Shown here piece after piece: positions 212 through 53,594 of a DNA stretch of 64,000 nt. Within the stretch, counting starts at the first letter, position 1, and every line of letters begins with the position of its first letter. The stretch is from a virus: positions 1 through 64,000 of the IMG/VR virus record IMGVR_UViG_3300030117_003369. One strand, 5' to 3'. Under the pieces are notes generated by a model. The model was not told the DNA's origin, searched no databases, and worked only from the letters and a program-made list of their open reading frames with translations. Position numbers and translations under genes: made by a program.

Positions 212-535
212 TTACCACTTTACCTTGTCAGCCCAATATGCAGCACTCATCGGTCCACGCTTGATATTCTTAGCATGACGAGCCTTAAACGAAGCCCGCT
301 TCTTTGCCCGCTTACCTGTTGGCTTATCTTCAGTTACAGTATCTGCACCTTGTTCACCAAATCGAATCGTCTTAACTTTACCACCTGACCTTGCTACAAC
401 CACATGTGATTTCTTAGGGTGATTAGGAGTACGCTTAGGTTTATTGTAACCGCTAACCCCTGCTGCTTTTAGACGAGGATCTGGCTTCTTTGTCTTGAGT
501 AACTGCCAAGCAGACTCAAACATATCGCCTGCCAT
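212..535 (-). CDS. Small basic viral protein with N-terminal FESAWQLLK tag
   Basis: ORF 212..550, ATG 535 preferred. K/R-rich, ending in the common phage motif RASFKARH...SAAYWADKVKW. Confidence 0.8.
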   Translation of the reverse strand: MAGDMFESAWQLLKTKKPDPRLKAAGVSGYNKPKRTPNHPKKSHVVVARSGGKVKTIRFGEQGADTVTEDKPTGKRAKKRASFKARHAKNIKRGPMSAAYWADKVKW

Positions 536-671
536 GGAACGCTGACGCAAGTATAGGAAATAAAGGTGGCCCTTTCACCGGGATAGCATGACGATGAGCG
601 AAAGCGTCAATGAGAGAAAGTGTCGAAGTTTCACGGAGGTGTAGTGTCCGGGCCGGTCAATCTGAGACAAT

Positions 672-827
672 TCAGATATATAGGGCTGTTTCCTTATCCA
701 ACTGAATATGTTGGCACTTGTTACACATCCAAGCAACACCACGCTGCACACTGTTATACTTCGTATACAGTCGCTTAGTAGGTTGGTGCCCACATGCATT
801 GCAGGCAGGACTTGGTTTACGAGGCAT
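672..827 (-). CDS. Small Zn-ribbon protein (51 aa)
   Basis: Read by hand: MPRKPSPACNACGH...WMCNKCQH. GGTGA RBS, directly follows the stop at 832. Confidence 0.7.
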   Translation of the reverse strand: MPRKPSPACNACGHQPTKRLYTKYNSVQRGVAWMCNKCQHIQLDKETALYI

Positions 828-831
828 TTGC

Positions 832-1545
832 TCACCTTGCATCTTCCCAATCTATTATTCTACCTATCTCGTTATACACAGGTCTAACTTCTGCTGGTCC
901 CGGTGGTAAGTTACTTGTATCTGTTTCCGATGCAGTTTGAGGAGATCTAACAGGAGGGCGAGCAAGAAGTTCAGGTCTAACAGGAGGACGAGCGGGTGGG
1001 AGTCGCTTTAAGTTAGCACTCGGCGCAGGGCCTTGGTTTCTTGCCTGTTCAAGCATTTCTTTCAATTTATTATTCGGATTATCCATGTTAGCATCTAATG
1101 ACTGCTGTATAGTGGGTTCAGGTAATTCACTAGCGATCTCGCCATAGTCCATGGCATCATTCTTTAACAATCTAAATGCTATTTCCATTGGATGTCCAGT
1201 TTCTACAGTAAAGCGTGAATCGTCACCACTGTAGATTTCGGGACTTTGGTTAAAAAACTTAACAGTTTCAAAGTTTAATGGGTATCTTTTATTTCCTTCT
1301 TTTACACTTTGTAATTGTGTTTCACTAGGTGCCTCATTTCTTTCATCAGTCATCAATGTTGCTCTAGGAGTATTTTCATAAAAGCCGGGACCGGAAGGAT
1401 TTCTTACAAAATCAGGTTTTTTCGCTTGACTTACAAGGTTATGGGGGTACCCCGGCCTTTGTTCAAGTCGCCTTTCATCTTCAATATGAGCCGTGTCAGA
1501 TCTTCGCTTTAACAAAACCCAACTATCATAAAAGGGACTCGCCAT
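832..1545 (-). CDS. Hypothetical protein with two tag copies (PFYDSWVLLK, internal PMEIAFRLLK)
   Basis: 237 aa ORF, Pro-rich C-terminal part. Confidence 0.75.
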   Translation of the reverse strand: MASPFYDSWVLLKRRSDTAHIEDERRLEQRPGYPHNLVSQAKKPDFVRNPSGPGFYENTPRATLMTDERNEAPSETQLQSVKEGNKRYPLNFETVKFFNQSPEIYSGDDSRFTVETGHPMEIAFRLLKNDAMDYGEIASELPEPTIQQSLDANMDNPNNKLKEMLEQARNQGPAPSANLKRLPPARPPVRPELLARPPVRSPQTASETDTSNLPPGPAEVRPVYNEIGRIIDWEDAR

Positions 1546-1547
1546 GG

Positions 1548-2396
1548 CTACACCGACAGGGTTTGGGCTAAAGAAGGTTCTGCTATCTTCAAAGCAATGC
1601 GCTTGGCGTTGGCAAGGTCATCTATAGACACACCGCAGTCGTAGCCCCTAGCAGTCAACCATTTGACTAGTGACTCGGTTGCCAAGTTGCCGGGACTCCC
1701 ATCTACAAACGGACAGCCCCCTAAGCCAGCAATACTAGAATCAAACTCACTGATGCCACACTCAATGCCTTTGCGAACCAACGAAAGAGCATGCAATTCA
1801 CTATCTGCACGGTGATGAAGGTGAAGCGCAGGGCGAATACCTATCTTCTCACAGATACCTGCAGCAACCTCGACCTCGTGCTCAGTGCCGACCCCAACAG
1901 TATCTGACAAAACCACGGTATCACCAAACAATTTCGCAGCCTGAATCGCTCTGACACGCTTGCTCATAGGAATGTCACCCTCGTAAGGACAGCCGAAGTA
2001 GCACGATATATAGACACGAACATTGGCCTTCGGTATACCCTCAAGCATGAAAGCGTACCTAGCAATTGCCTCATTCAGTTCACAACCAAGGTTACGCCTG
2101 TTAAACTCCTCACTCGGAGAGAATACAATGTTGAAGTAAGTAACCCCTGACTTAATCGCACGGTCCATTCCACGCTGATTCATAACGAGCGCAGCCCCCT
2201 GCCCATCGAAAACCCTCTCAGCATCTGCCATCTGAGGAACATAAAGCGGGTGAGCAAAACTCACAGTTTCTATAGAACGCAAGCCTGCGCTCCTAAGTGC
2301 ATCGATTAACGCCCGCTTCATCCGGGTAGGTACGACCTTCTTGATTGTCTGCAATCCATCACGAGGGCCGACTTCGTAAATTGAAATCTTCTTCAT
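1548..2396 (-). CDS. hmgL: Hydroxymethylglutaryl-CoA lyase (DRE-TIM metallolyase), candidate auxiliary metabolic gene
   Basis: EVGPRDGLQ, PQMADA, FGCPYEG, LSDTVG, HLH metal site, GLGGCP and GNLATE motifs. ATG 2396 preferred over GTG 2405. Confidence 0.92.
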   Translation of the reverse strand: MKKISIYEVGPRDGLQTIKKVVPTRMKRALIDALRSAGLRSIETVSFAHPLYVPQMADAERVFDGQGAALVMNQRGMDRAIKSGVTYFNIVFSPSEEFNRRNLGCELNEAIARYAFMLEGIPKANVRVYISCYFGCPYEGDIPMSKRVRAIQAAKLFGDTVVLSDTVGVGTEHEVEVAAGICEKIGIRPALHLHHRADSELHALSLVRKGIECGISEFDSSIAGLGGCPFVDGSPGNLATESLVKWLTARGYDCGVSIDDLANAKRIALKIAEPSLAQTLSV

Positions 2397-2414
2397 CAGC
2401 CCCACCCATGTCTA

Positions 2415-2567
2415 TCACTTCAGGAAAAACAGGGCTTTCAAGGCTTTAAGCCAATTGACGGTCAACTTTTCACCAGTAACGAACTCAATACCTGTTTCTG
2501 CTTCTACACGATCTAACCTCGATGACTGGTGGTCGAACCACTCGTCTAACAGGGTGCAGCGTGTCAT
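2415..2567 (-). CDS. Hypothetical protein (50 aa)
   Basis: Read by hand: MTRCTLLDEWFDHQSSRLD..., GGAG RBS upstream. Confidence 0.6.
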   Translation of the reverse strand: MTRCTLLDEWFDHQSSRLDRVEAETGIEFVTGEKLTVNWLKALKALFFLK

Positions 2568-2742
2568 GTTGACTCCCAAGGATGTTCAGAAGTTAAGTTT
2601 TACTGTTCAAATGCCCCTAAGTCAACAATTATCGGAGGCTCTTCTCTCGGCCAAAATAGTGTCACAAAAAATGAAACCAAACCCAGTATGACGCATAATA
2701 ACCAAAGGGGCAGGCCTGTCAGTTCAACGGGGTCAGGAAGCG

Positions 2743-2952
2743 TCATTCAATTCCTAGTTCCTCTTGTCTGCGCTTAATTGCTTCCATCGCTTGAGCGGTT
2801 TTGGCTTCTTCTGTCTGCAGATAAGCAGTCCGATCTGCCTGAGCCTTTTCTCGTGCCACCTTCGCTGCCTGTCTTTCAGGGTCAGGAGTAAAAGGATTGT
2901 AAATCTCCTTTTCTTCCTTCAGAAAAGTCCACGCTGCGTCGAAAGGTTGCAT
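2743..2952 (-). CDS. Tagged small protein (MQPFDAAWTFLK)
   Basis: ORF 2743..2970, start placed at the shared motif. Confidence 0.75.
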   Translation of the reverse strand: MQPFDAAWTFLKEEKEIYNPFTPDPERQAAKVAREKAQADRTAYLQTEEAKTAQAMEAIKRRQEELGIE

Positions 2953-2957
2953 GGGTA

Positions 2958-3317
2958 TCACTCTTCCCAAATTACCTCACCATCATAGTCGTCCATAGGT
3001 AGGTTTAATGAGGGGTTTCTAGGAGGCAAACCGTAATCTCGCTGGTAGGCATAGGCAGCAGCAAGTCTCCTCTCGTACTCATCATTCTTTGCGTTTAATT
3101 GATTAAGAGTGTGTTGTCGACCGGGAGTACCTTTGGGTAAATTAAGCACCGCCAAACTCGCTGAGTTGAAAGGCGCAGGTATACCGTACTTGTAATCCAT
3201 ACCTACTTCAGTTGGCCTAGTGTTGCCACCAACATATAACTCAGGAGAGTTTTGCATAGACTGCTCTAGCAAAGTCATTTCTTTCAAAAGAGTCCAAGCC
3301 TGCTCAAATGGTCGCAT
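2958..3317 (-). CDS. Tagged small protein (MRPFEQAWTLLK)
   Basis: ORF 2958..3347, start placed at the shared motif with GGTGA upstream. Confidence 0.75.
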   Translation of the reverse strand: MRPFEQAWTLLKEMTLLEQSMQNSPELYVGGNTRPTEVGMDYKYGIPAPFNSASLAVLNLPKGTPGRQHTLNQLNAKNDEYERRLAAAYAYQRDYGLPPRNPSLNLPMDDYDGEVIWEE

Positions 3318-3327
3318 GGGTATCACC

Positions 3328-3738
3328 TTAGTATTGTCTACCGCCACTCATGTAGCCTTCGCCCGCTGCGGCGTTTCCACCTTCATCGAAAATGTCAGTT
3401 GGGGTAACTTCACCTGCGTCTATACGGCGTTCTAAATCATCATAGTACTTACGACTCATCTCTTCTCGGTGCCATCTGTCCTCTTCTGCTTGCATCTGTT
3501 CTATTTCTTCCTTGGTGGGAGCATAGTATTCAGCAAGGCCGGGATGATCTTCAGGGAAAGGAAGGGGCCTTGGTTGTCTATCGTTAAGATCCTCCCTTGT
3601 TAATGACAAAGGTAAACCTAAGTTTCTCTTACCAGCAACTCGATGCAACCTTACATGTCTATCAGTGTCGTCGAGAGTGCGAGCAGGCTCCGAAGTATAA
3701 CTCTTCAAGAGTCGCCAAGCATGATCGAAAGGTTGCAT
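3328..3738 (-). CDS. Tagged small protein (MQPFDHAWRLLK)
   Basis: ORF track, AGGTGA RBS. Confidence 0.8.
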   Translation of the reverse strand: MQPFDHAWRLLKSYTSEPARTLDDTDRHVRLHRVAGKRNLGLPLSLTREDLNDRQPRPLPFPEDHPGLAEYYAPTKEEIEQMQAEEDRWHREEMSRKYYDDLERRIDAGEVTPTDIFDEGGNAAAGEGYMSGGRQY

Positions 3739-3740
3739 AA

Positions 3741-3914
3741 TTACTCACCTCTAAACGCAGTTGCAGGATTCATCATCGGACTCCACTTTTGATTGTAACA
3801 ACTAATGCACTCTTCGGGACTACCAGTAGCAGGATCTATTTGACTAGGGTTGCCACAATGAGGGCACTTTACATCTTCTTTCAGTATTTTCCAAGCATGA
3901 TCGAAAGGTTGCAT
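3741..3914 (-). CDS. Tagged small Zn-finger protein (MQPFDHAWKILK; CPHC...CISC)
   Basis: ORF 3741..3923, start placed at the motif. Confidence 0.75.
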   Translation of the reverse strand: MQPFDHAWKILKEDVKCPHCGNPSQIDPATGSPEECISCYNQKWSPMMNPATAFRGE

Positions 3915-3919
3915 AAATA

Positions 3920-4288
3920 TCACATCGGTTGTTGCCTATCGCCTGAATAGTATTGTTCAACATCTTCACGGGTCAATTCCTCCATACCAGTATCGAGGGT
4001 GGGTGGATTTACTTGGCGATCATAAGGAGGTTGGCTAGTAAACATATTTGCAAGTAATAATCTCAATCGCTGATTATCAAAGTCATGCTTTTTATCAGAA
4101 TCTAATGGATCCACTGTATCTTGTCCCATTCGATAATGGAACAACTGTTCATTATTATCATCATCTATCAAATGTTGGCTTATTGGTGGGTTTCTTTCTA
4201 CATCAGTTTCTCCAAGTTCAGGTAACCTTACAGGAGAAGGCTTAGTATAATTTTTCAAAAGCCGCCAAGCCTGATCGAAAGGGCGCAT
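3920..4288 (-). CDS. Tagged small protein (MRPFDQAWRLLK)
   Basis: ORF track. Confidence 0.8.
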   Translation of the reverse strand: MRPFDQAWRLLKNYTKPSPVRLPELGETDVERNPPISQHLIDDDNNEQLFHYRMGQDTVDPLDSDKKHDFDNQRLRLLLANMFTSQPPYDRQVNPPTLDTGMEELTREDVEQYYSGDRQQPM

Positions 4289-4320
4289 TGTCTAACCCGA
4301 ACCACTCAAGACACAAATAG

Positions 4321-4671
4321 TTAGCGGGAGTTTTGGTATACTATCGCCCACGCTAAGTCAAAAGGTTCGCTAGCCAATTTTTCTTGGAAGTCCATATCAA
4401 AAGGTTGCTGAGATAGCATCTGTTGTTCAGCATCAGGTGTTCTCAATCTCATTTCATCAGTCAACGCCTGCTTTTGTTCGGGAGTTTGCAAAAAAGGCTT
4501 GTTAAAGCCAATTGAAGCCAGTTCATCATACTCAAACTCAGCAAATGGCCTTGGTGCATTACCTTCCTCCATATCTTTAAGTCGCTTTTCAGTAGCCGCC
4601 TCTCGTTGTAAAAACTCACGGTAACTTGGATCTTCCTTGAGCAAAGTCCACGCTAAATCAAATGGACTCAT
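4321..4671 (-). CDS. Tagged small protein (MSPFDLAWTLLK; second copy EPFDLAWAIV near the C-terminus)
   Basis: ORF 4321..4698, ATG 4671 at the motif. Confidence 0.75.
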   Translation of the reverse strand: MSPFDLAWTLLKEDPSYREFLQREAATEKRLKDMEEGNAPRPFAEFEYDELASIGFNKPFLQTPEQKQALTDEMRLRTPDAEQQMLSQQPFDMDFQEKLASEPFDLAWAIVYQNSR

Positions 4672-4773
4672 AGAACAAGCCAGTGCCAATGCCAACAAAA
4701 ACTTAGCGCTGGTTTTGGTATACTAAAAACGATTTTTTTGTAATTTTTTTTCAAGCGCCGTATGGGGTTAGAA

Positions 4774-4840
4774 GGGGAAAAGTTGGGTGAAAAGTCCCAT
4801 TCCTCCGGTGAAAAGTCGAGGGGGTTTATAAGGGGGGGTA
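4774..4840 (+). promoter_or_regulatory. Putative archaeal TATA promoter with upstream direct repeats at the strand-divergence point
   Basis: TTTATAA at 4825-4831 flanked by G-runs. GGTGAAAAGTC at 4786 and 4807, GGGGAAAAGTT at 4774. Confidence 0.5.
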
Positions 4841-4951
4841 TGTTTTATTGTCTATCGGTGCTGGCCTTCACGGCTCGCACACCTGCCCCTGTTCATAGAG
4901 CAGGGTAGGTACCCCGCTTGCCTGTGAGGGTTGCATCGAGGAGATGACATT

Positions 4952-5404
4952 ATGTCGGACACAGAAACAACAACCCCAACAGGACTAACTGCTATGCAGT
5001 TGAACATGCTGGTCGCAGGGTACGAAGTAACGCTACCTTGCGGAACCACGGTTCACCCGAAAGCAGAGTCCTCGAACCACGAAGCGCAGCCTACGGCTAC
5101 CAAGCCAGCGGCTAAGACAGCACCAGCCAAAGCGAAGAAGCAGAAGAGCGACAAGTACGCACCTGCTGGCTTCAAATACCTAAGCAAGGTGAAACTGCGA
5201 GAGGCAAAAATCGCAGGACTCATCCCGTGGCTAACCACCGTGAACGATGCGATGGAGAAGTACGGCATGACGACTGACTTCGCACCGCACACCGCTAAGG
5301 CAAAGGCTGGCGCAACCAAGGTAACCGTAGCCGGTGCTACGGAGATGTCCAAGCGTGACTCTGACGACCTCGCTCGTCTAAAGCGCAAGGGCATCATTGC
5401 CTGA
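4952..5404 (+). CDS. Basic Lys/Ala-rich protein, first gene of the plus-strand block, possible nucleic-acid binder
   Basis: ORF 4931..5404, ATG 4952 after GAGGAG. PAAKTAPAKAKKQK linker. Confidence 0.8.
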   Translation: MSDTETTTPTGLTAMQLNMLVAGYEVTLPCGTTVHPKAESSNHEAQPTATKPAAKTAPAKAKKQKSDKYAPAGFKYLSKVKLREAKIAGLIPWLTTVNDAMEKYGMTTDFAPHTAKAKAGATKVTVAGATEMSKRDSDDLARLKRKGIIA

Positions 5405-6420
5405 GTCTAAGCCAAGACGCCGTAGGCGCACCTAGAACCACCGCTACACAAAGCGGCCCCCCAGCCGGTAGGTCAACAATGTTGCAAGCCGTGCTGATTA
5501 CGAGGTGAGAAGGGACACCTGTCAAAATAAAACGAGCGTGGTACCCGCCGCTTAACCAAACGGAGTTACCGGACTATACCGGCCCAGCACACGCGATCGT
5601 GTGCGACCATCTGTAGCGGCTGCCCCTATACGCAAATGTAGCGGCAGCCCTCGCAGAATATGGCGAACAACATATTTGGCATAAGCCGAACAAGGCCGGA
5701 CAACCAACCACCTTGCGGGCCAGTTTGCACAAAACAAAGGAACACACGCTGCAAATGCGGCGGAGTTAGATGCAAAGAGCGCTGAAAAAAAGCGCATTCT
5801 ATTCAGCGAGCCGTGTGGGTATTGACATCCCGCACCACATTCACTTCTTGTCATCCCAACATCGTGCGAGGAGATTAATGCGTTAGTACCGCACGGCTCA
5901 AGTCACCTTCACCTATTCACGAACCGTTGTACTGCGAGTCAGCGGCTCGTTACGAATACATGAAATACAACATGTACACTAGTCATGTAATCGAAACCGT
6001 AGTGCTTACGAATACATATACACACTACCCATAGATAATATATCTCTTATTTCTGTAAGGGGTATAGTGTATGTACTGTACATGAAACTACGAATACACG
6101 ACTAGTGGACACGATGTATTCCATGTACACGATGTACGCAGTACAGCGTTTAGCCTATTCAATGCAGATGTACGGAGGGCGTAGAGCCTAGTGGGAGAGC
6201 GAAGCAATTCGCTGTACGCTCGTAGAGATACCGCCACGAAAATCGACAGAGAACCCAAGACCTCTTCGGGGGCTGACAGTCGGGAAAGACCGGCACCTAT
6301 TCCTTCCGGCGACATAAACGCCGGTGTTCACGGGTCGTGTGAACACTCAGTGCATGTAGAGAGGCTGCATGTTGTTAGTAGCACGACCCCCCATTCCTTA
6401 TGCGCACACGATCGCATACA
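5405..6420 (+). ncRNA. Candidate large structured non-coding RNA (~1 kb), family not recognised
   Basis: No credible ORF. Many stems with G-U pairs, GCAA and cUUCGg tetraloops, nested long-range pairings and a 3' pseudoknot. Boundaries approximate. Confidence 0.7.
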
Positions 6421-6445
6421 TCACATTCCCTTGGAGGAAACAAAC

Positions 6446-6628
6446 ATGAGCATGAGTATAGAACAAGTTTGGAAGCACACCGAGTATCAGCGCAAAATGC
6501 TAACCAATGCAATTATGCGATACTTGGGGGCGATACCACATAAAGATTGGACTGAAGAGCAGAAAGCACTTTGGCGAGAAATGGCAGATGTGAACAACAC
6601 ATCAATCGAAGAATACTTCGGAATCTAA
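6446..6628 (+). CDS. Hypothetical protein
   Basis: 3' part of ORF 6191..6628, ATG 6446 after GGAGG. Confidence 0.7.
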   Translation: MSMSIEQVWKHTEYQRKMLTNAIMRYLGAIPHKDWTEEQKALWREMADVNNTSIEEYFGI

Positions 6629-6660
6629 ATCACATATCACATTCCCACGGAGGAAAACAC

Positions 6661-6966
6661 ATGAGGACAGGAGACACAACATACATTGTGGTAAGGTTTG
6701 AGGAACGGGGCATTACATGTGCCGGTACTCATCTTATCCGAGAATGCGCAGAGTTACAGGCAGAAAGCCTTAACGAAAGGCGCAACAAGATACATGAAGC
6801 AAAGTGGCGAGTACAGGAGTCTATGTACTATGACGACTACATGGACTATGCTTACTTCATAAGGCAGAAGAAAGCAGATTTGGCAAAACTCGCTGAAGAT
6901 TGCGGCATAGCAAAATCAGGTACTAAGCACGACATTGCTATGCGCATATTGCGAGCCTGCGAATAA
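6661..6966 (+). CDS. Small protein with C-terminal SAP-like DNA-binding motif
   Basis: ATG 6661 after GGAGG. KKADLAKLAEDCGIAKSGTKHDIAMRI fits the SAP helix-loop-helix pattern. Confidence 0.65.
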   Translation: MRTGDTTYIVVRFEERGITCAGTHLIRECAELQAESLNERRNKIHEAKWRVQESMYYDDYMDYAYFIRQKKADLAKLAEDCGIAKSGTKHDIAMRILRACE

Positions 6967-6998
6967 TCACATTCACACAAACACAGGAGATGAAACAA

Positions 6999-7145
6999 AT
7001 GGACAACAGGAAAAAAGCATATTGTCCGGGCGGTTGCGGTGCGAGTACTTGGTACTCTACCTGCGTACCTGCTGGGAAGGAATCAGTTGTGCACCAAAGT
7101 ACGCACAACACGATACAGCACAAGTGCACATGCGCAAAAGCGTGA
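6999..7145 (+). CDS. Small Cys-rich protein (48 aa)
   Basis: Read by hand: MDNRKKAYCPGGCG...HKCTCAKA, AGGAG RBS. Confidence 0.55.
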   Translation: MDNRKKAYCPGGCGASTWYSTCVPAGKESVVHQSTHNTIQHKCTCAKA

Positions 7146-7193
7146 GCACATATCACATTCCCGCCCACTGAAGGGCGAGATAAGCAAAGAGAG

Positions 7194-7727
7194 ATGAATA
7201 TAATGAGTATGACATTAGGAGATATACTAATGAATGCGACTGTGAACGGACAAGAAGTAGAGGTGACCGCAGGTGTACTTTTACACGGTGCTATGGCAGA
7301 CACATTCGATACGAATGTAACTGCAACAGAAGGCGAACTTGGCTGGGACACGGAATCAGAGCGCATTGAAGCAATAGCGGAAATAGCAGCAAAGAGAAAG
7401 CAGAAGGAAATTGCACGAAGAAACCGAGAAGCACGACGCAAGAAGGGTTCAGGTGCTTACAAGGGCAACTGGAAACCATCTAAGGGCACAAGAGTTGTGA
7501 CAACGACTACAGGCAAGATGACAAAGGCGGAGTTTGATGGCAGCAAGGCGAAGCATGACAAGATAATGGAGAGAGATGCTTCAGGTAAGCGTGTTCACAA
7601 TTGCGCTGCTGCTAAAGCATACAGGCATCAAGTTTACGAATACATGTCCAAGCAGCGTGACGATGCAGGTAATTTGATTCGCACTGAGCACCCTGATGCA
7701 AGGGCAGTACAGTTAGCGGGCATTTGA
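7194..7727 (+). CDS. Hypothetical protein, acidic N-terminus and basic C-terminus
   Basis: ORF track, exact start uncertain. Confidence 0.75.
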   Translation: MNIMSMTLGDILMNATVNGQEVEVTAGVLLHGAMADTFDTNVTATEGELGWDTESERIEAIAEIAAKRKQKEIARRNREARRKKGSGAYKGNWKPSKGTRVVTTTTGKMTKAEFDGSKAKHDKIMERDASGKRVHNCAAAKAYRHQVYEYMSKQRDDAGNLIRTEHPDARAVQLAGI

Positions 7728-7743
7728 ACAGGAGATGAGATGA

Positions 7744-7914
7744 ATGACAGGTGGAAAATCAGGAACAAGAGACAACCCAAGAGGCGTACCGAAAAGACCA
7801 GTAGTGTACTCAGGTATGCTTGAAGAAGAGAAAAAGCGATTCTTAGCGAACTGCCGCAAGTACGGCATGAGCAAGACTCAGTGGCGTAGGCTGCGACATG
7901 TCAGAAAACTCTGA
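7744..7914 (+). CDS. Small basic protein (56 aa)
   Basis: Read by hand: MTGGKSGTRDNPRG..., AGGAG upstream. Confidence 0.55.
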   Translation: MTGGKSGTRDNPRGVPKRPVVYSGMLEEEKKRFLANCRKYGMSKTQWRRLRHVRKL

Positions 7915-8169
7915 TGCGCAGGCGATCGCATGAAGCGAATCACAGTGAGAGTAAGAAAGACGGGTCGATTGGGCAAGCCTCTCGACTCGTCTTTCACAAG
8001 GGAAACCAAATACGCAAGAGATGAGAACAATGCAAATACACAGAATGACGAATGAAGAGTTTGAGATGTGGGAGTCGGGCCTATTGCCTGAACTTCCATG
8101 GGTATGCAAGATGGAAGAGAACCAATGCACGGCAGACAATCCATGCGATGGATGCTGGGGGTTCTTGAG

Positions 8170-8550
8170 ATGACGATTGAAAAAATGGCTAACCAAACCC
8201 TGTATGCAGAAACGGTACAGGTGATGGAGCACATAGACAAGAAGCCATCCGACATATCACGAATAGGTTCCTATGACGGTGAATACGAATGCACATGGGA
8301 TGAGTTCAAAGAACTCGCTGACTTTCACTACGACAGTGGTTTTGGCGGGGTGGAGGTAGCGACGGACTTGATAATCCTGTTCCGTGATGGCACTTGGCTT
8401 GAGCGAGATGAATACGATGGTTCAGAATGGTGGGTCCATCGTGTACCACCTGAGCCCATGTCCTTGTTCAAACTCGACTACAAACAAATCAAAAAGTTAC
8501 AGGGTCATGGTTCGATTGAGCATTTGGATGAAGAATATGAGGAAAGATGA
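8170..8550 (+). CDS. Conserved phage hypothetical protein
   Basis: YDSGFG...GTWLERDEYDGSEWW motif common in phage ORFs. ATG 8170 preferred. Confidence 0.7.
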   Translation: MTIEKMANQTLYAETVQVMEHIDKKPSDISRIGSYDGEYECTWDEFKELADFHYDSGFGGVEVATDLIILFRDGTWLERDEYDGSEWWVHRVPPEPMSLFKLDYKQIKKLQGHGSIEHLDEEYEER

Positions 8551-46297: not shown

Positions 46298-46451
46298 AGA
46301 AGGCCTGTACTCTATGCGGCGCTAAGTATGAACATGACGAAGAAGGCGTCAGTGGTTACTTTGGGTTACTAAAGGTGGACTTTTGTGATTTTTGTTTAGC
46401 CTGTATGGGCGCAATGCACGAGAGCCTAAACACACTGTCAGGTGAGGAGGA

Positions 46452-47006
46452 ATGAAAGACGAATACTTTGTAGTGTTCGCCTATGGTAGTGAGTTTTCGC
46501 ATATAGTGAATGCACCCCAAGTAGTTATCATAACTGGCGAGAACTACTTGTCTGTATACACTAGTCATCGATCTTACATCAATTCCAAACCTATCAAATA
46601 CTCAAAAATACAAGACGAAATGGCACTTATTGTAGATAATGGAGGGATATTAGTTTTGAAAAATACTCAAGATTACGGACTCACTTTATCTTGGTCGGGT
46701 ATAACCAAATCTAACCCCAGCGATATGATGGATTACATTGAAAATCATGTCATAGATATCGATAAGGATTTGAAAGAACTGACCGGGCAGAAACTGAATC
46801 TAAACGATACAGATTTAACATCTCAGTTACTCACTGAGATATACGCACCAATTTGGCAAAAAGGTAGCGAAGTCAAAATAATTGAAGATTGCATATCAGA
46901 TGCAAATATAATTCTCGACTTAATCCAGCGTTGTAGTAACGCAGGTGATATAAGGGTGAGATTGAGAAATGAAGAAATACCAATGGAGTTTGATGTAGAA
47001 TGGTAA
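46452..47006 (+). CDS. Hypothetical protein
   Basis: ORF with GAGGAGG RBS. Confidence 0.7.
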
Positions 47007-48496
47007 ACAACGGAGAGCAACAACAAACAGCACAGAGCCTAAACATTCGTGCTGCGAAAGCAATCGCAGACACAGTTAGAACGACGCTAGGTCCGGCGGG
47101 AATGGACAAGATGATGGTAGATGGAGGTGGCAATGTCATTGTAACAAATGATGGGGCTACAATTCTGCAGGAACTTGATGTTTCCCACCCCGGTGCCAAG
47201 ATGATAATTGAAGCCGCTAACACGCAAGAAAGCATGTGTTACGATGGCACGACAAGTACAGTTGTATTGGCAGGTCAATTACTAAGTAACACAGAATCAC
47301 TATTTGAAAAGGGTCTACACCCTAATGTAATCTGTAAAGGTTACAGACAAGCAGCACAATGGGCTGTCGAGCATATACAATCACTATCAGAGTCAGCCAA
47401 GCCTCATCTGACGCATGTGGCTCAGACTTCAATCACAGGTAAATCACTAGAATCTGCCATGGAACATGTCAGTTGGTTATGTGTAAAGGCGGCAGAATTG
47501 GCTGGGGGCGACTTTGAGCGCATCCGTGTCCTGTGTCAGCCCGGTGGAGGCTTAGAAGATTCAACATGCTTCTCAGGTGTAGTTTTACACAAGGAGTTCA
47601 TGCTACCTGCTATGCCACTACTACAAGGTAAAGCACTACTAATCAACACTGGACTCAGCAATAAGAAGAATGAGGACAATGTACAGGTATCACTTGGATC
47701 TGCTGCTGAATATCAGCAATATCAGCAGACCACGACTAGAGATATTTGGGTCAAGAAGGCAGAGGCTATTATTGAGCGCCTACCTGATGGTGGTGCAGTA
47801 TTCGTTAGGGACCATGTAAATGAAGTGGTTGCCGCTACACTGGCTAAGGCTGGTGTCAGCGTTGTACAGCGTTTGCCTGAGAGTGATATGACCGCACTAG
47901 GTCTACTTCTCAATACAAATGTAGCCCACACTATCGAGGACTTAGGAGATGCTGTCGATGCAGATATCGAATGCAGAGCCATTGGTGACATGAAGTATGT
48001 CGTAGTCGAAGGCGAGGGTGAAGTCACTACTCTCATCCTTAGAGGCGCTACTAAGCAGACACTCGATGAAACCGAGCGTGGCTTTGAAGATGCTCTCGGT
48101 GTTGTGTGCTTAGCATACAATACTCTTGAAGTCGTACCGGGTGGAGGTGCAGCATATCTCAACTCTGCTATCAATCTAAGAAGCAGGGCGGCAGAGATTG
48201 GTGGCCGTGCTCAGATGGCAATTGACGCCTTTGCAGACGCACTAGAAACAATCCCTGCTACTATCGCTGAGAATGCAGGTCACGATCCACTGGACACTGT
48301 GTTGGCACTCAGAAATGAGCACCTATCAGGTAACATTGATTATGGCCCCGATATTGAAAACGGAGGCACTATGTCAATGAAGAGTGCTGATGTATGGGAG
48401 CCGTTGAATCTAGTCAGGCAGGCTATTCAGTCTGCAAGTGAAGTCACTATCAGCATCCTGCGCATCGATGACATCATCGGTAAGCGTGGTGAATAA
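47000..48496 (+). CDS. ths: Group II chaperonin (thermosome subunit)
   Basis: [41 protein letters not shown]. Confidence 0.95.
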
Positions 48497-48544
48497 AGCG
48501 AAAATACTCAGCACCTTTAACTATGGTATGGTATACCAAAAGGT

Positions 48545-48982
48545 ATGGCGGAGAAAGACCATAACAAGGAGAGCGAGAATAACGAACAAACAGCCAGTGA
48601 CGAGGCACTAGCACAGTATTTGTCACTACCTGTCATAGAGCAGCAATCAGAGCAATTAGATGATATGATTGCCACTGCGATTGATGACTTAGAACATGCT
48701 AAGTCTATACCTGAAAACGGCTATGATGAAGATAAGGGAGAAGGAGCATACTTTGGTGATTATGTCGCATTAGCCTCATCATTCTTTGATGATGATGTAG
48801 CCTTTCTAATGCACTTATTAGCACACCACGCTCAAACTGAGCAATTTAATAATAAAAATGATACTACATATTGTATGGAAAGCATGCTTTATTTGTTAAA
48901 ATTATGTAAAGTAAACCCTGAATTGATGCTGTCGGGCAAATATCCCAGTGGCGGAATAATGGAACAAGTACCTATTGCCTAG
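48545..48982 (+). CDS. Acidic hypothetical protein, possibly leaderless with its own promoter
   Basis: ORF track. CTTTAA about 28 nt upstream of the ATG. Confidence 0.7.
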   Translation: MAEKDHNKESENNEQTASDEALAQYLSLPVIEQQSEQLDDMIATAIDDLEHAKSIPENGYDEDKGEGAYFGDYVALASSFFDDDVAFLMHLLAHHAQTEQFNNKNDTTYCMESMLYLLKLCKVNPELMLSGKYPSGGIMEQVPIA

Positions 48983-49211
48983 AAGCAGTAACTAATTCTC
49001 TAGCAAAGCGCCCGTAGGGAAACCTGCGGGCCTTGCTAGACTTAGATTTAGGTAGCGACTTTTCACCCAATTTGGACATATGCCCGCAGATCGGACATTC
49101 CTGAATTGTCGTACCTTTGCCGGAAAAGTAAACGCCTCTAATTACAAGGGGAATGCTTTTCTCGTTACAATTGACGCATTCTATCTGCAATTCAGTGAGT
49201 AATTTACCCAT
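48972..49211 (-). CDS. Small Zn-ribbon protein
   Basis: CVNC...CPIC. Confidence 0.75.
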   Translation of the reverse strand: MGKLLTELQIECVNCNEKSIPLVIRGVYFSGKGTTIQECPICGHMSKLGEKSLPKSKSSKARRFPYGRFARELVTASRQ

Positions 49212-49215
49212 ATTA

Positions 49216-50403
49216 TCAGGCCTGTAGTATTAGCAAATGCCAATCGGCACCATCGTATGCGAATCTAGCATACTTACCATTGGCTATGTTGATGTTGGCG
49301 GCGCTGGCATTGTCTGTCTTAGCGTTGAATACCGTATTGTAAGAGCCACTGGTAGATATGTTTCTAATTTCAATCACATGACCCGGCGGGAATGTACCGC
49401 TAGGTGTGAGTGTAGCGTGAGCGCTACCCCCGTTGGGATTCACTAGCCATATGTTCGCTTGGTCGAAGGTGAATGAGGTATTAGCGGTCACTATACTCAA
49501 CTCATTGGGTCCGAGCCTATGCGTGTGCATTGCCTTAGTGCCACCTAATGTCTTAGAAGCAGCATAATAGAGCATAGAGTGGGAGTCAGGAGTATGGCTT
49601 TGCCAAATAGCCCCGTATTCACTGTTAGTCAAATCACCGGATTCAGGTGAGCCGTAAAGTGCGGCAAGATCGGTGTGAGAATCTATGGCATTACCGGCAG
49701 TGTGGAATCCAGTGCCTGTTGTTATGCCACCCTTTGTCATATGCTGTAAATAGATAGGGCTGGTTCTAATGAAAACCCGCCTGTCGTGCAACACTGGGCT
49801 GGCGTTGAGAGAAGCAGTTACATTTGCTGCTCCACCTGTCATCGTGTAGCGCAAAACGCCTAAAACAATCGATTGGTGATTGCTACGAGTGTTACCGATA
49901 GAAGGATTAGACAAGAATCCTGATGGTATCAGCGGTGTGCCCTGTGAAGGTACCACTGGTGTACCCATTTCATATCTAATTCTAGCAGTTGTGCCGCTAT
50001 CTGAGCAGATATAGACTACTACAAACACATCACTAGTTGCTGTAGGAACTGCTGGAAGTGAGCCATTGAAGTTGGCTGTACCAGTTGCACCTATTGTGAT
50101 TTGCTGGGTAGCACCCGGCCCGCCTGCGAACTTGTAAAGTGCACCGTCCAGTACACACCATCCACCGTGGATAGTGACTACACCTGATGATGCAGTTTCT
50201 ATAAATCCGGGTGTGGATGCCGCTATGCTGTTTCTTAGAGCAGTACCCACCGCTGTATCAGACATACGAATGATACCGTTGCCGTGTATTCCTTCGTATG
50301 GGTTAGTCAAACTAGGAGATGATAGGCCATCTCCGTCTTTCAATCCTTCTGCGCTGCTACTCATACCTGCAGCGGCCATATGTCCTGCCTTTGGGTTCGT
50401 CAT
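49216..50403 (-). CDS. Putative virion (tail/baseplate) protein
   Basis: G/S/T/A-rich, beta-type sequence at the end of the late operon. Confidence 0.6.
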   Translation of the reverse strand: MTNPKAGHMAAAGMSSSAEGLKDGDGLSSPSLTNPYEGIHGNGIIRMSDTAVGTALRNSIAASTPGFIETASSGVVTIHGGWCVLDGALYKFAGGPGATQQITIGATGTANFNGSLPAVPTATSDVFVVVYICSDSGTTARIRYEMGTPVVPSQGTPLIPSGFLSNPSIGNTRSNHQSIVLGVLRYTMTGGAANVTASLNASPVLHDRRVFIRTSPIYLQHMTKGGITTGTGFHTAGNAIDSHTDLAALYGSPESGDLTNSEYGAIWQSHTPDSHSMLYYAASKTLGGTKAMHTHRLGPNELSIVTANTSFTFDQANIWLVNPNGGSAHATLTPSGTFPPGHVIEIRNISTSGSYNTVFNAKTDNASAANINIANGKYARFAYDGADWHLLILQA

Positions 50404-50756
50404 GGTGTCACCTCAATAATTGCCGAGAATACAATTTCATTGTTGCTCGTCTTAGTTATTGAATCATATGTATATCTTGCTATGGCCGTAGTATCGGTTG
50501 CATCTGAGGGGTTTTTGTACTGTATAACTACTTCTTTCAAAGGAGTGCTGAAAGTGCTACTGAGTGGTACCTTGGCTTCTACTGACAAACTATGGTCGTC
50601 AATGACTCTAACCACAGGTGTGACTACGATCGCTGGCTGTGCGGCCCCTGCATCGTCTTGGGTAGCCAGTGTTCCTCCAAATCCAAACACCACCTGATTG
50701 ATTCTGTCTTTTAGCGTGTCAATTACATATCTTGTTCCTTGGTTTAATAGTGGCAT
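50400..50756 (-). CDS. Putative virion (tail) protein
   Basis: Coupled gene, LKEV...ARY...ITKT pattern seen in tail-fibre-associated small proteins. Confidence 0.55.
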   Translation of the reverse strand: MPLLNQGTRYVIDTLKDRINQVVFGFGGTLATQDDAGAAQPAIVVTPVVRVIDDHSLSVEAKVPLSSTFSTPLKEVVIQYKNPSDATDTTAIARYTYDSITKTSNNEIVFSAIIEVTP

Positions 50757-50757
50757 A

Positions 50758-52443
50758 TCAGCCCCTCCTTCTGTTTGAGAATGTGCCTTTGTTCATCTTT
50801 ATCTTCAGATGGTCGTTTGCAGACTCAGGTAGCGAATCTGTAGAGATTTGGAATAGTTCTTCATTGTTATCAACAGCGTGAGGCGAAGCAGTTGCGATTA
50901 CTACAGATGTAGTACCAGCACTGCTCACTTTACCTAGCAGGTTGCCATTAGCCTTGTAGACAAATGCATCTGCTTTACCATCACTAATTACACTTGAAGT
51001 GAATATCGAGTTTGCATTGGTACCGTCAGTAGTGAAGTTAGTAGTGCCGATAGCGTAACCTCCACCGTTATTGATTAGTATTCCTGTAGACTTCAAGTGC
51101 ATTCTACCATGCACTGTGTTTCTATTAGGTACGCCAATCACGATACCTGCAGTTGGATCTTTGACATCCCTAGTTTCTACACGCCAACTAATTTTAACTT
51201 TGAAACCAAATGCTGTTGCAAACTCTTCTTGGCTGAACTGCCTGTTTCTTTCTTCGTTATCACGGGTGCTGGAACTGATGTCCACCTCTTGAAAACGCTG
51301 TAGTATATCCTCTATAGAGCCGTCAACGGAATTGATATCTATGTCTGATTTACGCTGTGTCAAATAGTGCTTAGTAGACAAAACTATCTTCCTTTCAGAA
51401 TCGGTGATGGTTTCGTATGAGATTACATCCCCCGGCTGTACTCTACTTGACATGAGTGTGCCCCTCAACTTCTCATTACCTTCTGCTTTCTTTGCCATAG
51501 ATAGTAACCTTCGTCCAATTGCCTTAGCACTGGCTTTGGTTACTGCTGTCGGAGCATAAATACCACCCGGTATCTCATTCACTGTGTCTTTTTGCGGCCC
51601 GAAGTCGTCAACTTGCACTACATTTTGGTCGTTATTAGCACGGACTTTTCCCCGCACTACTACACGGTTGAGTGTACTTTTCCCCTCAGATTCGATAGAG
51701 CCTTCAGAAACCATTGTCTGCGTAACTATGTGTTCTCTGCCGTGCTTTTGCTGATGAGAGTAATGTAAGTTGCCAAACTGATCTGTACTGACATTGTACC
51801 CGTCATGTTTTGCTAAGAATCGCATAGCACTAACTCCATCTACACCATAGAAGTCCTGTGCTACGAAAGTACCACTTGGATTTTTGATAGATAATCCGTT
51901 TAGTGAGTTAGTACTGGCTTTGGCTAGCCTGCCGACTAAATCAGTAGTACGCAAGCCGACATTTGCTTTCTGTCCAATCCGTACCTTTTTGTCAGTAAAA
52001 CCAATTTGTTTTAATTCTGAGCCTTTCAGATTTCCAAGGCGGTAGCGTGAGCCTTTGTTGCTGGCTTCTATAGAAGCAGGTACTAATGCTTGGTTGGGAT
52101 TGTCTGCACCTATGATTAGTGGAGGTAAAGTGGCGTCGGTTACCTTACTGACCTTTTCTTCGTTGACGAAAATATCACCAGTGTACCTGTGACCGTCACT
52201 GGTGTTGTGCAATAATCGAATAGTATCTTCTTCTTCAATTAAAGAGTACTTTCGATCGTGAGTAGGCATGAAATCGCTGGATGTGGGTGCCTTTACTAAG
52301 AATCCACTTTGTTGTTTCGTGTACTCTCCATGCCGGACGCCATTATCTACAAACTTAGGCTTGCGTATTCTTTTCATAATTGGAGCCTGTGCTGCATCAG
52401 CACGACCAGTTGCGAGATTCTTACCTAGTGCCAGCCAAATCAC
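50758..52443 (-). CDS. Putative tail/baseplate hub-like protein
   Basis: LAKHDGY..STDQFGNLHY, NRVVVRG and VQPGDVI resemble hub / late-control-D type proteins. Confidence 0.55.
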   Translation of the reverse strand: MIWLALGKNLATGRADAAQAPIMKRIRKPKFVDNGVRHGEYTKQQSGFLVKAPTSSDFMPTHDRKYSLIEEEDTIRLLHNTSDGHRYTGDIFVNEEKVSKVTDATLPPLIIGADNPNQALVPASIEASNKGSRYRLGNLKGSELKQIGFTDKKVRIGQKANVGLRTTDLVGRLAKASTNSLNGLSIKNPSGTFVAQDFYGVDGVSAMRFLAKHDGYNVSTDQFGNLHYSHQQKHGREHIVTQTMVSEGSIESEGKSTLNRVVVRGKVRANNDQNVVQVDDFGPQKDTVNEIPGGIYAPTAVTKASAKAIGRRLLSMAKKAEGNEKLRGTLMSSRVQPGDVISYETITDSERKIVLSTKHYLTQRKSDIDINSVDGSIEDILQRFQEVDISSSTRDNEERNRQFSQEEFATAFGFKVKISWRVETRDVKDPTAGIVIGVPNRNTVHGRMHLKSTGILINNGGGYAIGTTNFTTDGTNANSIFTSSVISDGKADAFVYKANGNLLGKVSSAGTTSVVIATASPHAVDNNEELFQISTDSLPESANDHLKIKMNKGTFSNRRRG

Positions 52444-52978
52444 CCCAAGTGTTTTCTGTGTTCATTTCAGTTGTTGGTGGTAAACTTACCAATAATTCAG
52501 GAGGTATATTTTGTTGAATGTAAGCCTCTGCCCCTTCACCTATTAAGCCTTGATTTCTAAATTGGCCCTTAGTTTCAGCAACTGGTATTCTCATACCTAT
52601 CAATTTTCTATTCTGACCCAAATCTGAAGTTATATTACCTTTGTAAGGAGCCACCCATGTACCGGGTTTTGACAAATCAAAAGGTATTACTCTGCCCATT
52701 TTAGCACCGCTTTCTTGTGCGAATCTAATATCATCCTCCCAATCCTGAGTTTCTTTATCTGAGTCTATTGTAGGTAGTCCTGTTTGAATCAAACTTTCAT
52801 AGGGAGGGTGTATGTTTTTAGGTAAAGGGTCAAACCTTTTTTGTTGCTTATACCAATCTTTGGTAGGGTGTAGTCGCATCATAGTTACAGGGCCGTATGG
52901 GCTTGGCATATCAGGGTGGAACTCACCAAGCGTAGTTTGACGCTTCAGTATCATCCAAGCCTCATCCATTGGTGTCAT
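52421..52978 (-). CDS. Tagged protein with possible ADP-ribosyltransferase-like fold
   Basis: Shares its first 31 aa with the next gene. RLHPT...GL...GTWV...EAYI..NIPPE. Confidence 0.55.
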   Translation of the reverse strand: MTPMDEAWMILKRQTTLGEFHPDMPSPYGPVTMMRLHPTKDWYKQQKRFDPLPKNIHPPYESLIQTGLPTIDSDKETQDWEDDIRFAQESGAKMGRVIPFDLSKPGTWVAPYKGNITSDLGQNRKLIGMRIPVAETKGQFRNQGLIGEGAEAYIQQNIPPELLVSLPPTTEMNTENTWGDLAGTR

Positions 52979-53594
52979 GCGCCTCACTCCAACCCCTCTG
53001 TATTCTGAGTACCCCATTTTTGTCGCCATTCATCCATATTGAAAGTATTAACAGTCTCTCCTTCAAAAGAAGGAGGTTTGTCATTAACATAAAATGGTGG
53101 CATTATTGATGAGAATTGGTATTCATCATCGTTTATTTCACTATCAGTTGGGGGGAGATGTGTTAAGAATTGAGGAGGAACTTTGTTTGGAAACCTCCAA
53201 TCATCCTCAAAAATCCGCTGAGCAGTGTAACTATTTGGTGTTCTCCCAAGGTGTTCATCTCCAAATCCAAAATAAGGTTCAGGAGTACCTGCACCTTGTC
53301 TTACACCTATAAGCACTGGTTTAGAGGAGGGTTGTTTCGCAGTACCTACATCAAGTTTTCCATAATACTGTGCACCGCTCAGTGAAGGGGTGACAAATGC
53401 ACCCCGAAACGCATCCCCCCAATCATTTTTATCTTTAGCCCTCAATCCTTCTCTCATAATAGAGGGCACTCTATGTTGCTTAGTTCCATGAAAATACATC
53501 ACAGGGCCATAAGGACTTGGCATATCAGGGTGGAACTCACCAAGCGTAGTCTGACGCTTTAGTATCATCCAAGCCTCATCCATTGGTGTCATGC
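52887..53594. repeat. 94 bp direct repeat (52887-52980 and 53501-53594)
   Basis: Five mismatches by eye, encoded peptide identical. Confidence 0.9.
52984..53592 (-). CDS. Tagged ADP-ribosyltransferase-like protein (HYE/KptA-type pattern)
   Basis: YFHGT...SIMREGL...GAFVTPS...AQYYG...VPPQFL. Confidence 0.65.
   Translation of the reverse strand: MTPMDEAWMILKRQTTLGEFHPDMPSPYGPVMYFHGTKQHRVPSIMREGLRAKDKNDWGDAFRGAFVTPSLSGAQYYGKLDVGTAKQPSSKPVLIGVRQGAGTPEPYFGFGDEHLGRTPNSYTAQRIFEDDWRFPNKVPPQFLTHLPPTDSEINDDEYQFSSIMPPFYVNDKPPSFEGETVNTFNMDEWRQKWGTQNTEGLE

Follow-up and report, generated by a model that had tools for sequence, protein, structure and literature searches.

The closest parallel to the locus described here is the capsid-targeting sequence (CTS) of phage T4, which, as summarized in PMC9026906 (with Mullaney and Black 1996 as cited there), comprises 10 residues, serves both targeting and cleavage by gp21, and is found on diverse internal proteins (IPs; IPI-III) and on the ADP-ribosyltransferase (ART) Alt. 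In the giant phages phiKZ and SPN3US, the prohead protease likewise cuts many head-internal proteins (inner-body and ejection proteins) at a short consensus, and large precursors are cleaved at multiple sites (PMC5694885, PMC7411985, PMC10052503). In phage P1, the Dar system fills the head, in a DarA/Hdf-dependent manner, with diverse anti-host proteins, anti-restriction proteins among them, which are then injected (PMC9024508, PMC12810830). The phiKZ and SPN3US propeptides are long and dissimilar outside the cleavage motif, whereas the virus analyzed here reuses a complete, conserved and predicted helix; P1 loading is hierarchical and proceeds via specific partner proteins, with no common short tag described there.

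The window, that is, the whole 64,000-nucleotide stretch that was analyzed, covers positions 1 to 64,000 of IMG/VR record IMGVR_UViG_3300030117_003369, whose complete genome contig is 109,462 bp long. Its source is a group A magrovirus, and this group ranks with the most abundant archaeal viruses of the surface ocean. A 12-residue tag of consensus M-x-P-[F/M]-[D/E]-x-A-W-x-[L/I]-L-K opens ten minus-strand genes with start ATGs at 535, 1545, 2952, 3317, 3738, 3914, 4288, 4671, 52978, and 53592. These ten copies had been listed in a preliminary description of the window, together with an internal copy (PMEIAFRLLK) in gene 832-1545 and a near-C-terminal copy (PFDLAWAI) in gene 4321-4671; all were recovered, the internal one at 1162-1191 and the near-C-terminal one without L-L-K. 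A six-frame scan of the whole contig with the pattern [FMY][DEY]x[AS][WF]x[LIFVM][LIVM]K returned 11 sites, the ten N-terminal ones and one internal, all in the window; this contig-wide scan found no strict match elsewhere and none in the plus-strand replication module. Two degenerate copies lie outside the window, upstream of terminase, in contig genes 102301-103437 and 107975-109369. When a profile built from the tags of relatives was applied, 13 tag sites of this genome outranked every other segment of the predicted proteome. At the DNA level, the window contains 6 matches to a pattern for A-W-x-L-L-K, versus 0.04 expected from shuffles. The Leu, Phe, Asp, Ala, and Lys codons vary at synonymous sites among the copies, and an SD-like GGTG(A) precedes the ATGs, which argues for selection on the peptide at real starts; a translation- or DNA-level repeat was rejected on the same codon differences. 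The literature searched contained no mention of the tag motif and no virion proteome for a magrovirus.

All tagged genes discussed below are encoded on the minus strand. Gene 212-535/550 begins with M-A-G-D-M-FESAWQLLK (494..535), and its very basic 93-aa body has a weak DUF5754 match (E 0.018). Gene 832-1545 is composed of two units, unit A starting with M-A-S-P-FYDSWVLLK (1507..1545) and unit B with the internal tag T-G-H-P-MEIAFRLLK (1162..1200). Inside the cluster lies an HMGL-like gene (1548..2405, minus strand), syntenic together with the tag cluster in three complete relatives; it is untagged, which shows that not all genes of this region bear the tag. Next come MQP-FDAAWTFLK (2917..2952; gene 2743-2952) with a 57-aa body, MRP-FEQAWTLLK (3282..3317; gene 2958-3317) with a 107-aa ORFan body, MQP-FDHAWRLLK (3703..3738; gene 3328-3738) with a 124-aa acidic body whose homologs are found in marine metagenomes only, MQP-FDHAWKILK (3879..3914; gene 3741-3914) with a 45-aa CxxC...CxxC zinc-ribbon body, and MRP-FDQAWRLLK (4253..4288; gene 3920-4288) with a 110-aa acidic body. 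Gene 4321-4671/4698 carries MSP-FDLAWTLLK (4636..4671) at its N terminus and the vestigial tag (E)-PFDLAWAI (4342..4368) at its C terminus; A-S precedes the vestige, as in the internal form, and it scores 10.1 bits against the tag profile. Genes 52421-52978 and 52984-53592/53601 both start with MTP-MDEAWMILK (52943..52978 and 53557..53592, respectively), followed by the extension RQTTLGEFHPD.

Related marine contigs contain 472 unique copies of the tag, of which 336 (71%) are N-terminal, 2 to 3 residues from the initiator Met, and 95 are internal; Met stands exactly at -3 in 271 of the 336. The Lys is invariant in 431 of 431 N-terminal and internal tags tabulated, in a scan whose pattern itself required Lys, and conservation drops sharply after it. 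The strict pattern was present in more than 120 marine metagenome stretches among the matches listed. A search of 596 Gb of prokaryote genomes gave no N-terminal M-x-P copies and 29 single matches, about the chance level by a rough estimate. The preliminary description had named an equally common motif in early or host genes as a refuting result; the contig and prokaryote scans did not show this. Of the IMG/VR contigs that bear tags, 35 have an MCP match, and in each of these the match to the MCP of this virus is full-length with at least 63% identity. Tag clusters are found in five of five complete relatives, and the cluster beside the HMGL-like gene is syntenic in four complete genomes, which differ in the number and bodies of the tagged genes. 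Tagged genes also occur inside the head module in relatives, directly after MCP in one (G005) and between TerL and portal in another (G004), and a tagged pair lies inside the tail module in this genome. The tag is a lineage-wide system restricted to one virus lineage.

Between the modules of polyprotein-like genes, the tag takes a distinct internal form, T-G-E-P-M-D-I-A-W/F-R-L-L-K. Multi-unit genes in relatives possess 2 to 5 internal tags each, and the units behind these tags belong to families identical to stand-alone tagged genes. Unit B of 832-1545 is itself a stand-alone tagged gene in one relative (L040), which, together with the multi-tag genes of relatives, supports the earlier reading of 832-1545 as a polyprotein. 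In the multi-tag proteins, the acidic and basic stretches are long and disordered, and the homolog in this genome (102301-103437) is located just upstream of the terminase-portal-protease-MCP block. Conservation of T-G-E-P upstream of the internal helix could point to cleavage before, not after, the tag or, alternatively, could reflect an N-capping constraint.

An S78 protease-scaffold fusion is encoded beside the MCP, and the protease matches Pfam S78 / S78_2, with no other family above threshold. The HK97 cut site is K103/S104 and P1 in phi12 is K/R; judging from these sites, cleavage after LLK would be compatible with S78-type proteases. The invariant terminal Lys and an S78 protease occur in the same genome, and the presumed specificity is that of HK97 and phi12. 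Both the MCP (..ELLK|AD) and the protease domain boundary (..ILK|ED) have L-L-K-like ends, which persist even in the lineage whose MCP is 63% identical, and HVTV-1 has ..SK|AD at both aligned places. Against the tag profile, the protease boundary EASFRILK scores -1.0 bits, which is noise level, and the scaffold C terminus is outside the top 30 matches; an argument from receptor mimicry is therefore unsupported here.

The reading that we favor, at about even odds, is that the tag is a helix for virion loading, similar in kind to the T4 CTS, whose last residue is the P1 Lys of the S78 prohead protease. In the AF2 model, the tag is a helix at residues 3 to 11, followed by a low-confidence linker and then a folded body. 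It would act as a short amphipathic docking helix, consisting of an N-cap residue, Pro, and F-D-x-A-W-x-L-L-K, in which F, A/W, and L line one face. It would steer soluble proteins of a rapidly changing repertoire (enzymes, zinc ribbons, and basic proteins of the DNA-binding type) into the virion during assembly, with the procapsid interior as the most likely destination. The terminal Lys would be the P1 residue for the HK97-type protease of the virus, which would clip the tag off single-unit cargo and split multi-unit genes into modules, leaving the clipped cargo free to exit together with the DNA. We infer docking to a virion component, cleavage after the Lys, and delivery into the host. More tentatively, and at somewhat less than even chances, these steps would amount to a general peptide-addressed cargo system open to any protein that carries the helix, running from helix to virion loading, release at the Lys by an HK97-type protease, and injection with the DNA, in which fusion and fission at the tag site turn well over 100 effector families into interchangeable cassettes.

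As with the T4 CTS, an N-terminal peptide of about 10 to 12 residues is common to otherwise unrelated, fast-evolving proteins (PMC9026906). The carriers in both cases include basic proteins and an ADP-ribosyltransferase (by predicted fold in the magrovirus) encoded in a polymorphic gene cluster, and by analogy the conserved last residue would fit what the prohead protease of the virus prefers at P1. The two peptides have no sequence similarity, however, and the magrovirus host is an archaeon; the magrovirus protease is S78 (HK97-type, basic P1), while T4 gp21 is S77 (Glu P1), and the magrovirus repertoire is far larger (163 body clusters) and includes a dedicated internal form between modules. 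Packaging and cleavage, established for T4, are predictions for the magrovirus tag. Homology to the CTS and gp21 was rejected, as the protease matches S78 / S78_2 only and the closest cultured relatives are haloarchaeal siphoviruses; the likeness is one of analogy, not homology.

Within the window, similarity past the Lys was detected for the 52421/52984 pair only (E 1.7e-12), all other body pairs having E of at least 0.03. The stop of similarity at the Lys, proposed earlier, holds for every gene except this pair, which is similar beyond its 31-residue leader and represents diverged paralogs over ~180 residues; homologous bodies, which would have told against a modular tag, are confined to it. 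In relatives, 414 complete bodies fall into 163 BLAST-unrelated clusters, with 114 singletons. Their Pfam matches are NUDIX (4e-22), HD_4, DUF6321, and double zinc ribbon, and other bodies are ART-fold proteins, basic proteins, and ORFans; the NUDIX, HD, zinc-ribbon, and ART-fold bodies are unrelated folds. A NUDIX or HD enzyme does not have to travel in the virion, which counts against the loading reading. Both comparisons bear out the preliminary view of a modular tag on mostly unrelated bodies. A simple paralogy, in which one family kept its N terminus while the bodies diverged beyond recognition and the tag has no common function, could draw on the true paralogs of the 52421/52984 pair and on several many-membered body clusters, but it is at odds with the unrelated Pfam families and the ART fold, with the number of clusters and singletons, and with the presence of the identical tag between modules; we find it scarcely credible, and it is largely refuted here.

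That all carriers lie on the minus strand was confirmed. The main cluster forms the promoter-proximal head of the minus-strand block, beside a divergent intergenic region, so that the strand shared with the virion genes is no proof of late timing and the tagged genes could be early; we infer late timing. This position would also suit docking to a non-virion hub (the virus thermosome, a host proteasome activator, or a replication/transcription hub), with the carriers being intracellular takeover effectors, possibly early; in the thermosome case, the helix would serve as a signal for clients or for recruitment. NUDIX, HD, and ART bodies are typical of host takeover, and the F-x-x-x-W-x-x-L spacing matches that of hydrophobic docking helices in general (p53/MDM2-type). 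A thermosome is encoded in every near-complete tag-bearing genome tested, but this co-occurrence is inseparable from all other lineage traits, and we know of no group II chaperonin that recognizes a short linear motif. Such a hub leaves the 2 to 5 tags per polypeptide, the very basic DNA-binding-like units, and the invariant Lys unexplained, and tagged genes are also inserted in head and tail modules; we consider it unlikely. It is improbable that the tags bind each other or a single abundant partner and so build an internal core or condensate, a matrix resembling a scaffold, without proteolysis and cross-linked by multi-tag proteins: the disordered acidic and basic stretches of these proteins and the location of 102301-103437 would fit, but most carriers combine one tag with a small globular or enzymatic body, and a signal for cleavage or for a boundary accounts better for the invariant Lys at the helix end and for the abrupt drop in conservation behind it. 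A signal for processing only, at which a protease of the virus or of the host would cut polyproteins, and which is devoid of targeting, would agree with the internal form, its upstream T-G-E-P and final Lys, and with the ends seen at the MCP and protease boundary and in HVTV-1. We regard it as very doubtful, since cleavage at the 71% of tags next to the Met would merely remove 12 residues and since nine conserved helix positions are far above the known needs of S78 sites.

Magroviruses have yet to be cultured, and the majority of their genes lack annotation; if the tag addresses cargo to the virion, about 1 in 10 genes gains a functional class. Virion loading would predict that Marine Group II archaea are injected with NUDIX, HD, and DNA-binding proteins and with proteins of the ADP-ribosyltransferase fold. 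It would carry the T4 principle of capsid targeting over to viruses of archaea and to HK97-type (S78) proteases, and would be the first peptide-addressed cargo system of archaeal viruses. Fusing and splitting genes where a peptide signal lies is a way to shuffle effectors, and a 12-residue loading tag for HK97-fold shells would be useful in engineering. Encapsulin cargo-loading peptides and the encapsulation peptides of BMCs also dock unrelated enzymes to the inner face of a shell; the encapsulin shell has the HK97 fold, and BMC peptides are N-terminal amphipathic helices with a linker. Encapsulin peptides are usually C-terminal, rarely N-terminal, and extended, on cargo encoded together with a non-viral HK97-fold shell, and neither system has proteolytic release or delivery into another cell. 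An encapsulin cargo peptide was rejected here because the magrovirus peptide sits at the N terminus or internally, its modelled structure is helical, and the shell gene is a virus MCP accompanied by terminase and portal.

Payloads of the extracellular contractile injection system PVC have an N-terminal signal on diverse genes beside a phage-tail-like operon, a likeness relevant to the tagged pair inside the magrovirus tail module; the PVC signals are disordered stretches of ~50 residues with poor conservation, and they depend on a dedicated AAA+ ATPase. The second gene of this pair (52984-53592/53601) had been described as ART-like, and a fold search on its predicted structure supports this as a candidate assignment: every top Foldseek match of the body is to Tpt1/KptA, tankyrase PARP, or diphtheria toxin (E about 1e-3, prob 1.0, TM 0.35-0.4), for a model with a mean pLDDT of only 60. 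An H-G-T motif, containing the candidate NAD-site His, is invariant in 9 homologs of this body.

As the preliminary description had reported, ten minus-strand open reading frames (ORFs), starting at window positions 535, 1545, 2952, 3317, 3738, 3914, 4288, 4671, 52978, and 53592, begin with the tag M-x-P-[F/M]-[D/E]-x-A-W-x-[L/I]-L-K. Gene 832-1545 indeed carries a second, internal copy, while the copy near the C-terminus of gene 4321-4671 is present but truncated. A genome-wide six-frame scan turned up no further strict tag, and the A-W-x-L-L-K DNA pattern was observed 6 times versus 0.04 expected. Beyond the window there are two degenerate copies, T-G-E-P-M-A-D-A-W-S-S-L-L-K in a 378-aa gene (102301-103437) and P-T-E-A-A-W-A-V-L-K close to the start of gene 107975-109369. 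The true start of the tagged genes is an ATG two codons upstream of the Pro, with a GGTG(A)-like ribosome-binding site in front of it. Among the copies, the codons for Phe, Asp, Ala, Leu, and Lys vary, indicating that conservation acts on the peptide and not on the DNA; a DNA- or translation-level element was rejected because synonymous sites vary. The bodies, the protein remainders after the Lys, are unrelated except in one pair of tagged genes in the tail region (52421-52978 and 52984-53592), which share more than the leader and are diverged paralogs (E 1.7e-12 over ~180 residues).

The window covers the first 64 kb of a contig of 109,462 bp. Overlap between the two contig ends shows a complete genome with either circular permutation or terminal redundancy. 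Its plus-strand block encodes a family B DNA polymerase, an SNF2 helicase, and a thermosome subunit; thermosome and SNF2 together are the hallmark of group A magroviruses (PMC5434244). The minus strand encodes the terminase, portal, S78 (HK97-type) prohead protease, which is fused here to a long acidic/helical scaffold-like region, HK97-type major capsid protein (MCP), and tail genes. Among cultured viruses, the MCP is closest to those of the haloarchaeal siphoviruses HVTV-1 and HCTV-1/5 (31-33% identity). On the circular contig, minus-strand genes from 4698 to 212 run straight on into 109369 to 64649 and then 63950 to 49216, forming a single ~65-kb block that opens with the tagged genes.

The tag is a lineage-wide system. 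A back-translated tag pattern matched 55 stretches in IMG/VR, many of them multi-copy, and a stricter pattern including the ATG matched over 120 marine metagenomic stretches among the matches listed. The 885 kb of matching stretches, again among the matches listed, contained 472 unique tags, among them 336 N-terminal copies, of which 271 have a Met at exactly position -3, and 95 internal ones. In the same set, 414 complete bodies fell into 163 BLAST clusters, 114 of which were singletons. According to Pfam, most tagged bodies are ORFans, and the recognizable families (NUDIX, 4e-22; HD_4; DUF6321; DUF3293; double zinc ribbon) are mutually unrelated. Paralogy was rejected on the basis of these unrelated Pfam families, the 163 body clusters, and the fact that only the tail-region pair is similar in the window. 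In 596 Gb of prokaryote genomes the pattern gave 29 single matches, about the number expected by chance according to our estimate; no N-terminal M-x-P copy was among them and none was clustered, and a host or general prokaryotic motif was rejected accordingly. Of the tag-bearing IMG/VR contigs, 35 gave an MCP match, in every case full-length and at least 63% identical to this MCP, which confines this form of the tag to one lineage. Tag clusters occur in all five complete relatives (5/5), in which a reversed control pattern gave zero clusters. Protein homology searches with the tagged proteins returned only homologs of the bodies, the tag being too short to reach relatives that share it alone. 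The relatives recovered in a TerL search all had at least 72% identity, with no other magrovirus groups among them.

Synteny of the main tag cluster extends from this genome to three complete relatives. The cluster adjoins an untagged HMGL-like gene and heads the structural strand beside a divergent intergenic region. Extra tagged genes are inserted at varying points within the structural modules: directly after the MCP gene in one complete relative (G005), between terminase and portal in another (G004), and, in this genome, as the tagged pair in the tail region between a 3450-aa giant protein and a downstream 561-aa protein. The plus-strand replication module of this genome contains no tags. 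In each of the three complete relatives mapped, the HMGL-like gene (HMG-CoA lyase family; window 1548-2405, minus strand; Pfam E 2.5e-22) is retained next to the tag cluster.

The residue pattern of the tag corresponds to a capped 2.5-turn amphipathic helix, with an N-cap (N/T/S) and a Pro followed by F-D-x-A-W-x-L-L-K, in which F, A/W, and L lie on one face and D and K are conserved. In the AlphaFold model of 52984-53592, the tag forms a helix (residues 3-11) followed by a low-confidence linker and a folded body. The body, modeled with nine homologs, has a core pLDDT of 70-86, and its best PDB structure matches all belong to the ADP-ribosyltransferase superfamily (Tpt1/KptA, tankyrase PARP domains, and diphtheria toxin; E about 1e-3, probability 1.0). 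On the strength of this pattern and model, we read the tag as a putative docking helix, and the conservation of D, W, and K argues for a specific protein contact. A secretion or membrane signal was rejected, as the tag has no hydrophobic stretch, and a RiPP-type leader was rejected because the bodies are proteins of 50-800 residues with enzyme folds. An optional second motif, (R/K)-Q-(S/T)-x-L, often continued by G-E-[F/Y]-H-P-D, follows 17 of the 472 tags among the matches listed, on otherwise differing bodies (window 52943-52912 and 53557-53526, and many loci).

The internal tag has the consensus T-G-E-P-M-D-[I/L]-A-[W/F]-R-L-L-K, compared with M-[N/T/S]-P-F-D-Q-A-W-x-L-L-K at N-termini. Proteins of the relatives with two to five internal-type tags are 200-960 residues long, and the units that follow these tags, including HD-domain, K-rich basic, R-Q-T-T-L, and very basic conserved C-terminal units, belong to the same families as stand-alone N-terminally tagged genes elsewhere; the second unit of gene 832-1545, for example, stands alone as a tagged gene in locus L040. 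This recurrence indicates gene fusion and splitting at the tag, and the truncated tag that closes 4321-4671 resembles a remnant of this kind of event. That internal tags are hidden starts, with G-E-P-M encoding a Shine-Dalgarno (SD) sequence and ATG, was mostly rejected, since SD-like words accompany 30 of 95 internal versus 201 of 270 N-terminal tags. The codon at position -3 of the internal tag is nearly always RGY (GGC, GGT, or AGC; loci L004-L058 and L187-L266), with GGA and GGG accounting for 4 of the 41 Gly codons at this position versus 38% in bodies, a bias that could reflect shared ancestry or a nucleotide-level constraint. Several multi-unit genes (L024, L034, L045, L053, and G001:51813-54695) end in a conserved, very basic C-terminal unit of ~80 residues (E-R-K-S-P-...-Y-D-K-Q-Y-...-R-R-R-G-I-Y-G...), in every case preceded by an internal tag; this unit is a candidate DNA-condensing core protein. 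In L008, L013, L047, and G004:91208-92116, internal tags come after an N-terminal domain with R-W-F-K-E-K-W-V-D-V ... P-C-G-R ... Y-P-K-C-R-P, and in one multi-unit protein (L050:1774-3207, minus strand) two tags flank a DnaJ-like CxxCxGxG ... CxxCxGxG zinc-finger unit.

Conservation drops abruptly past the invariant Lys that ends the tag. The HK97 S78-type protease cuts at K103/S104 (PMC10275583), and that of phi12 has K/R at P1 (PMC8569155). The presence of an S78 prohead protease gene, cleavage by such enzymes behind basic residues, and the invariance of the terminal Lys suggest a link between the tag and the virion with its protease. The helix would dock its carriers onto a virion component, and the S78 prohead protease would then cut after the terminal Lys. 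We infer packaging, cleavage, a receptor, and late timing alike, and consider the chances about even that the tag is a virion-loading helix ending in the S78 P1 Lys. In this virus, S-E-L-L-K/A-D occurs at MCP residue 33, and F-R-I-L-K/E-D closes the protease domain just before a variable linker; both L-K-type sites are retained as far out as the lineage at 63% MCP identity, and HVTV-1 has S-K/A-D at both aligned places, with K102 as the MCP site. This is a weaker observation than the three above, and we take the sites as no more than leads. PDB sequence searches with the protease and MCP gave no solved relative fixing the mature N-terminus.

A precedent by likeness is the T4 capsid targeting sequence (CTS), 10 N-terminal residues that direct the internal proteins (IPs) and Alt to the core of the prohead and that gp21 cleaves off; IP genes are polymorphic among T-even phages (PMC9026906). 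Here, in contrast, the virus is archaeal and the protease HK97-type, the repertoire is far larger, and a dedicated inter-module form exists. By analogy, we read the tag as putative CTS-like cargo addressing, undescribed in the literature searched: it is mentioned neither in magrovirus papers nor in a full-text literature search on motif words.

Other readings of the tag carry less weight than virion loading. It is unlikely, in our judgment, to be a docking signal for a non-virion hub such as the viral thermosome or a host factor; a thermosome is encoded in every near-complete tag-bearing genome tested and the promoter-proximal main cluster would suit early genes, but a hub leaves unexplained both the repeated tags between modules and the terminal Lys. 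Below the hub we place a self-associating matrix element, which appears improbable, and, slightly lower still, a processing signal only. Mimicry of the scaffold C-terminus (MSWDEVHNLA) or of the protease domain end (NPEASFRILK), each of which bears a loose by-eye likeness only, is not supported by the tag profile: in this genome the former is absent from its top 30 matches and the latter scores -1.0 bits, at noise level.

Large proteins are also encoded on the structural strand. The 3450-aa protein of the tail region is a single ORF (window 53598-63950, minus strand) with 41-44% identity over ~2000-2250 aligned residues in three complete relatives. Pfam and PHROGs searches gave nothing useful for the neighboring genes at 99286-109369 or for a 1939-aa protein encoded between portal and protease (L002:3709-9528, minus strand, equal to contig 87709-93528), in which a weak ATP-dependent DNA ligase-like segment was seen (PF01068, E 6e-4, residues 1518-1604). 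A run of ten Ns at contig 64685-64694, which is either an assembly gap or withheld bases, lies inside a 1652-aa minus-strand ORF just past the window. The position of the 1939-aa protein is that of the large head-internal proteins of HVTV-1 (gp113-gp115).
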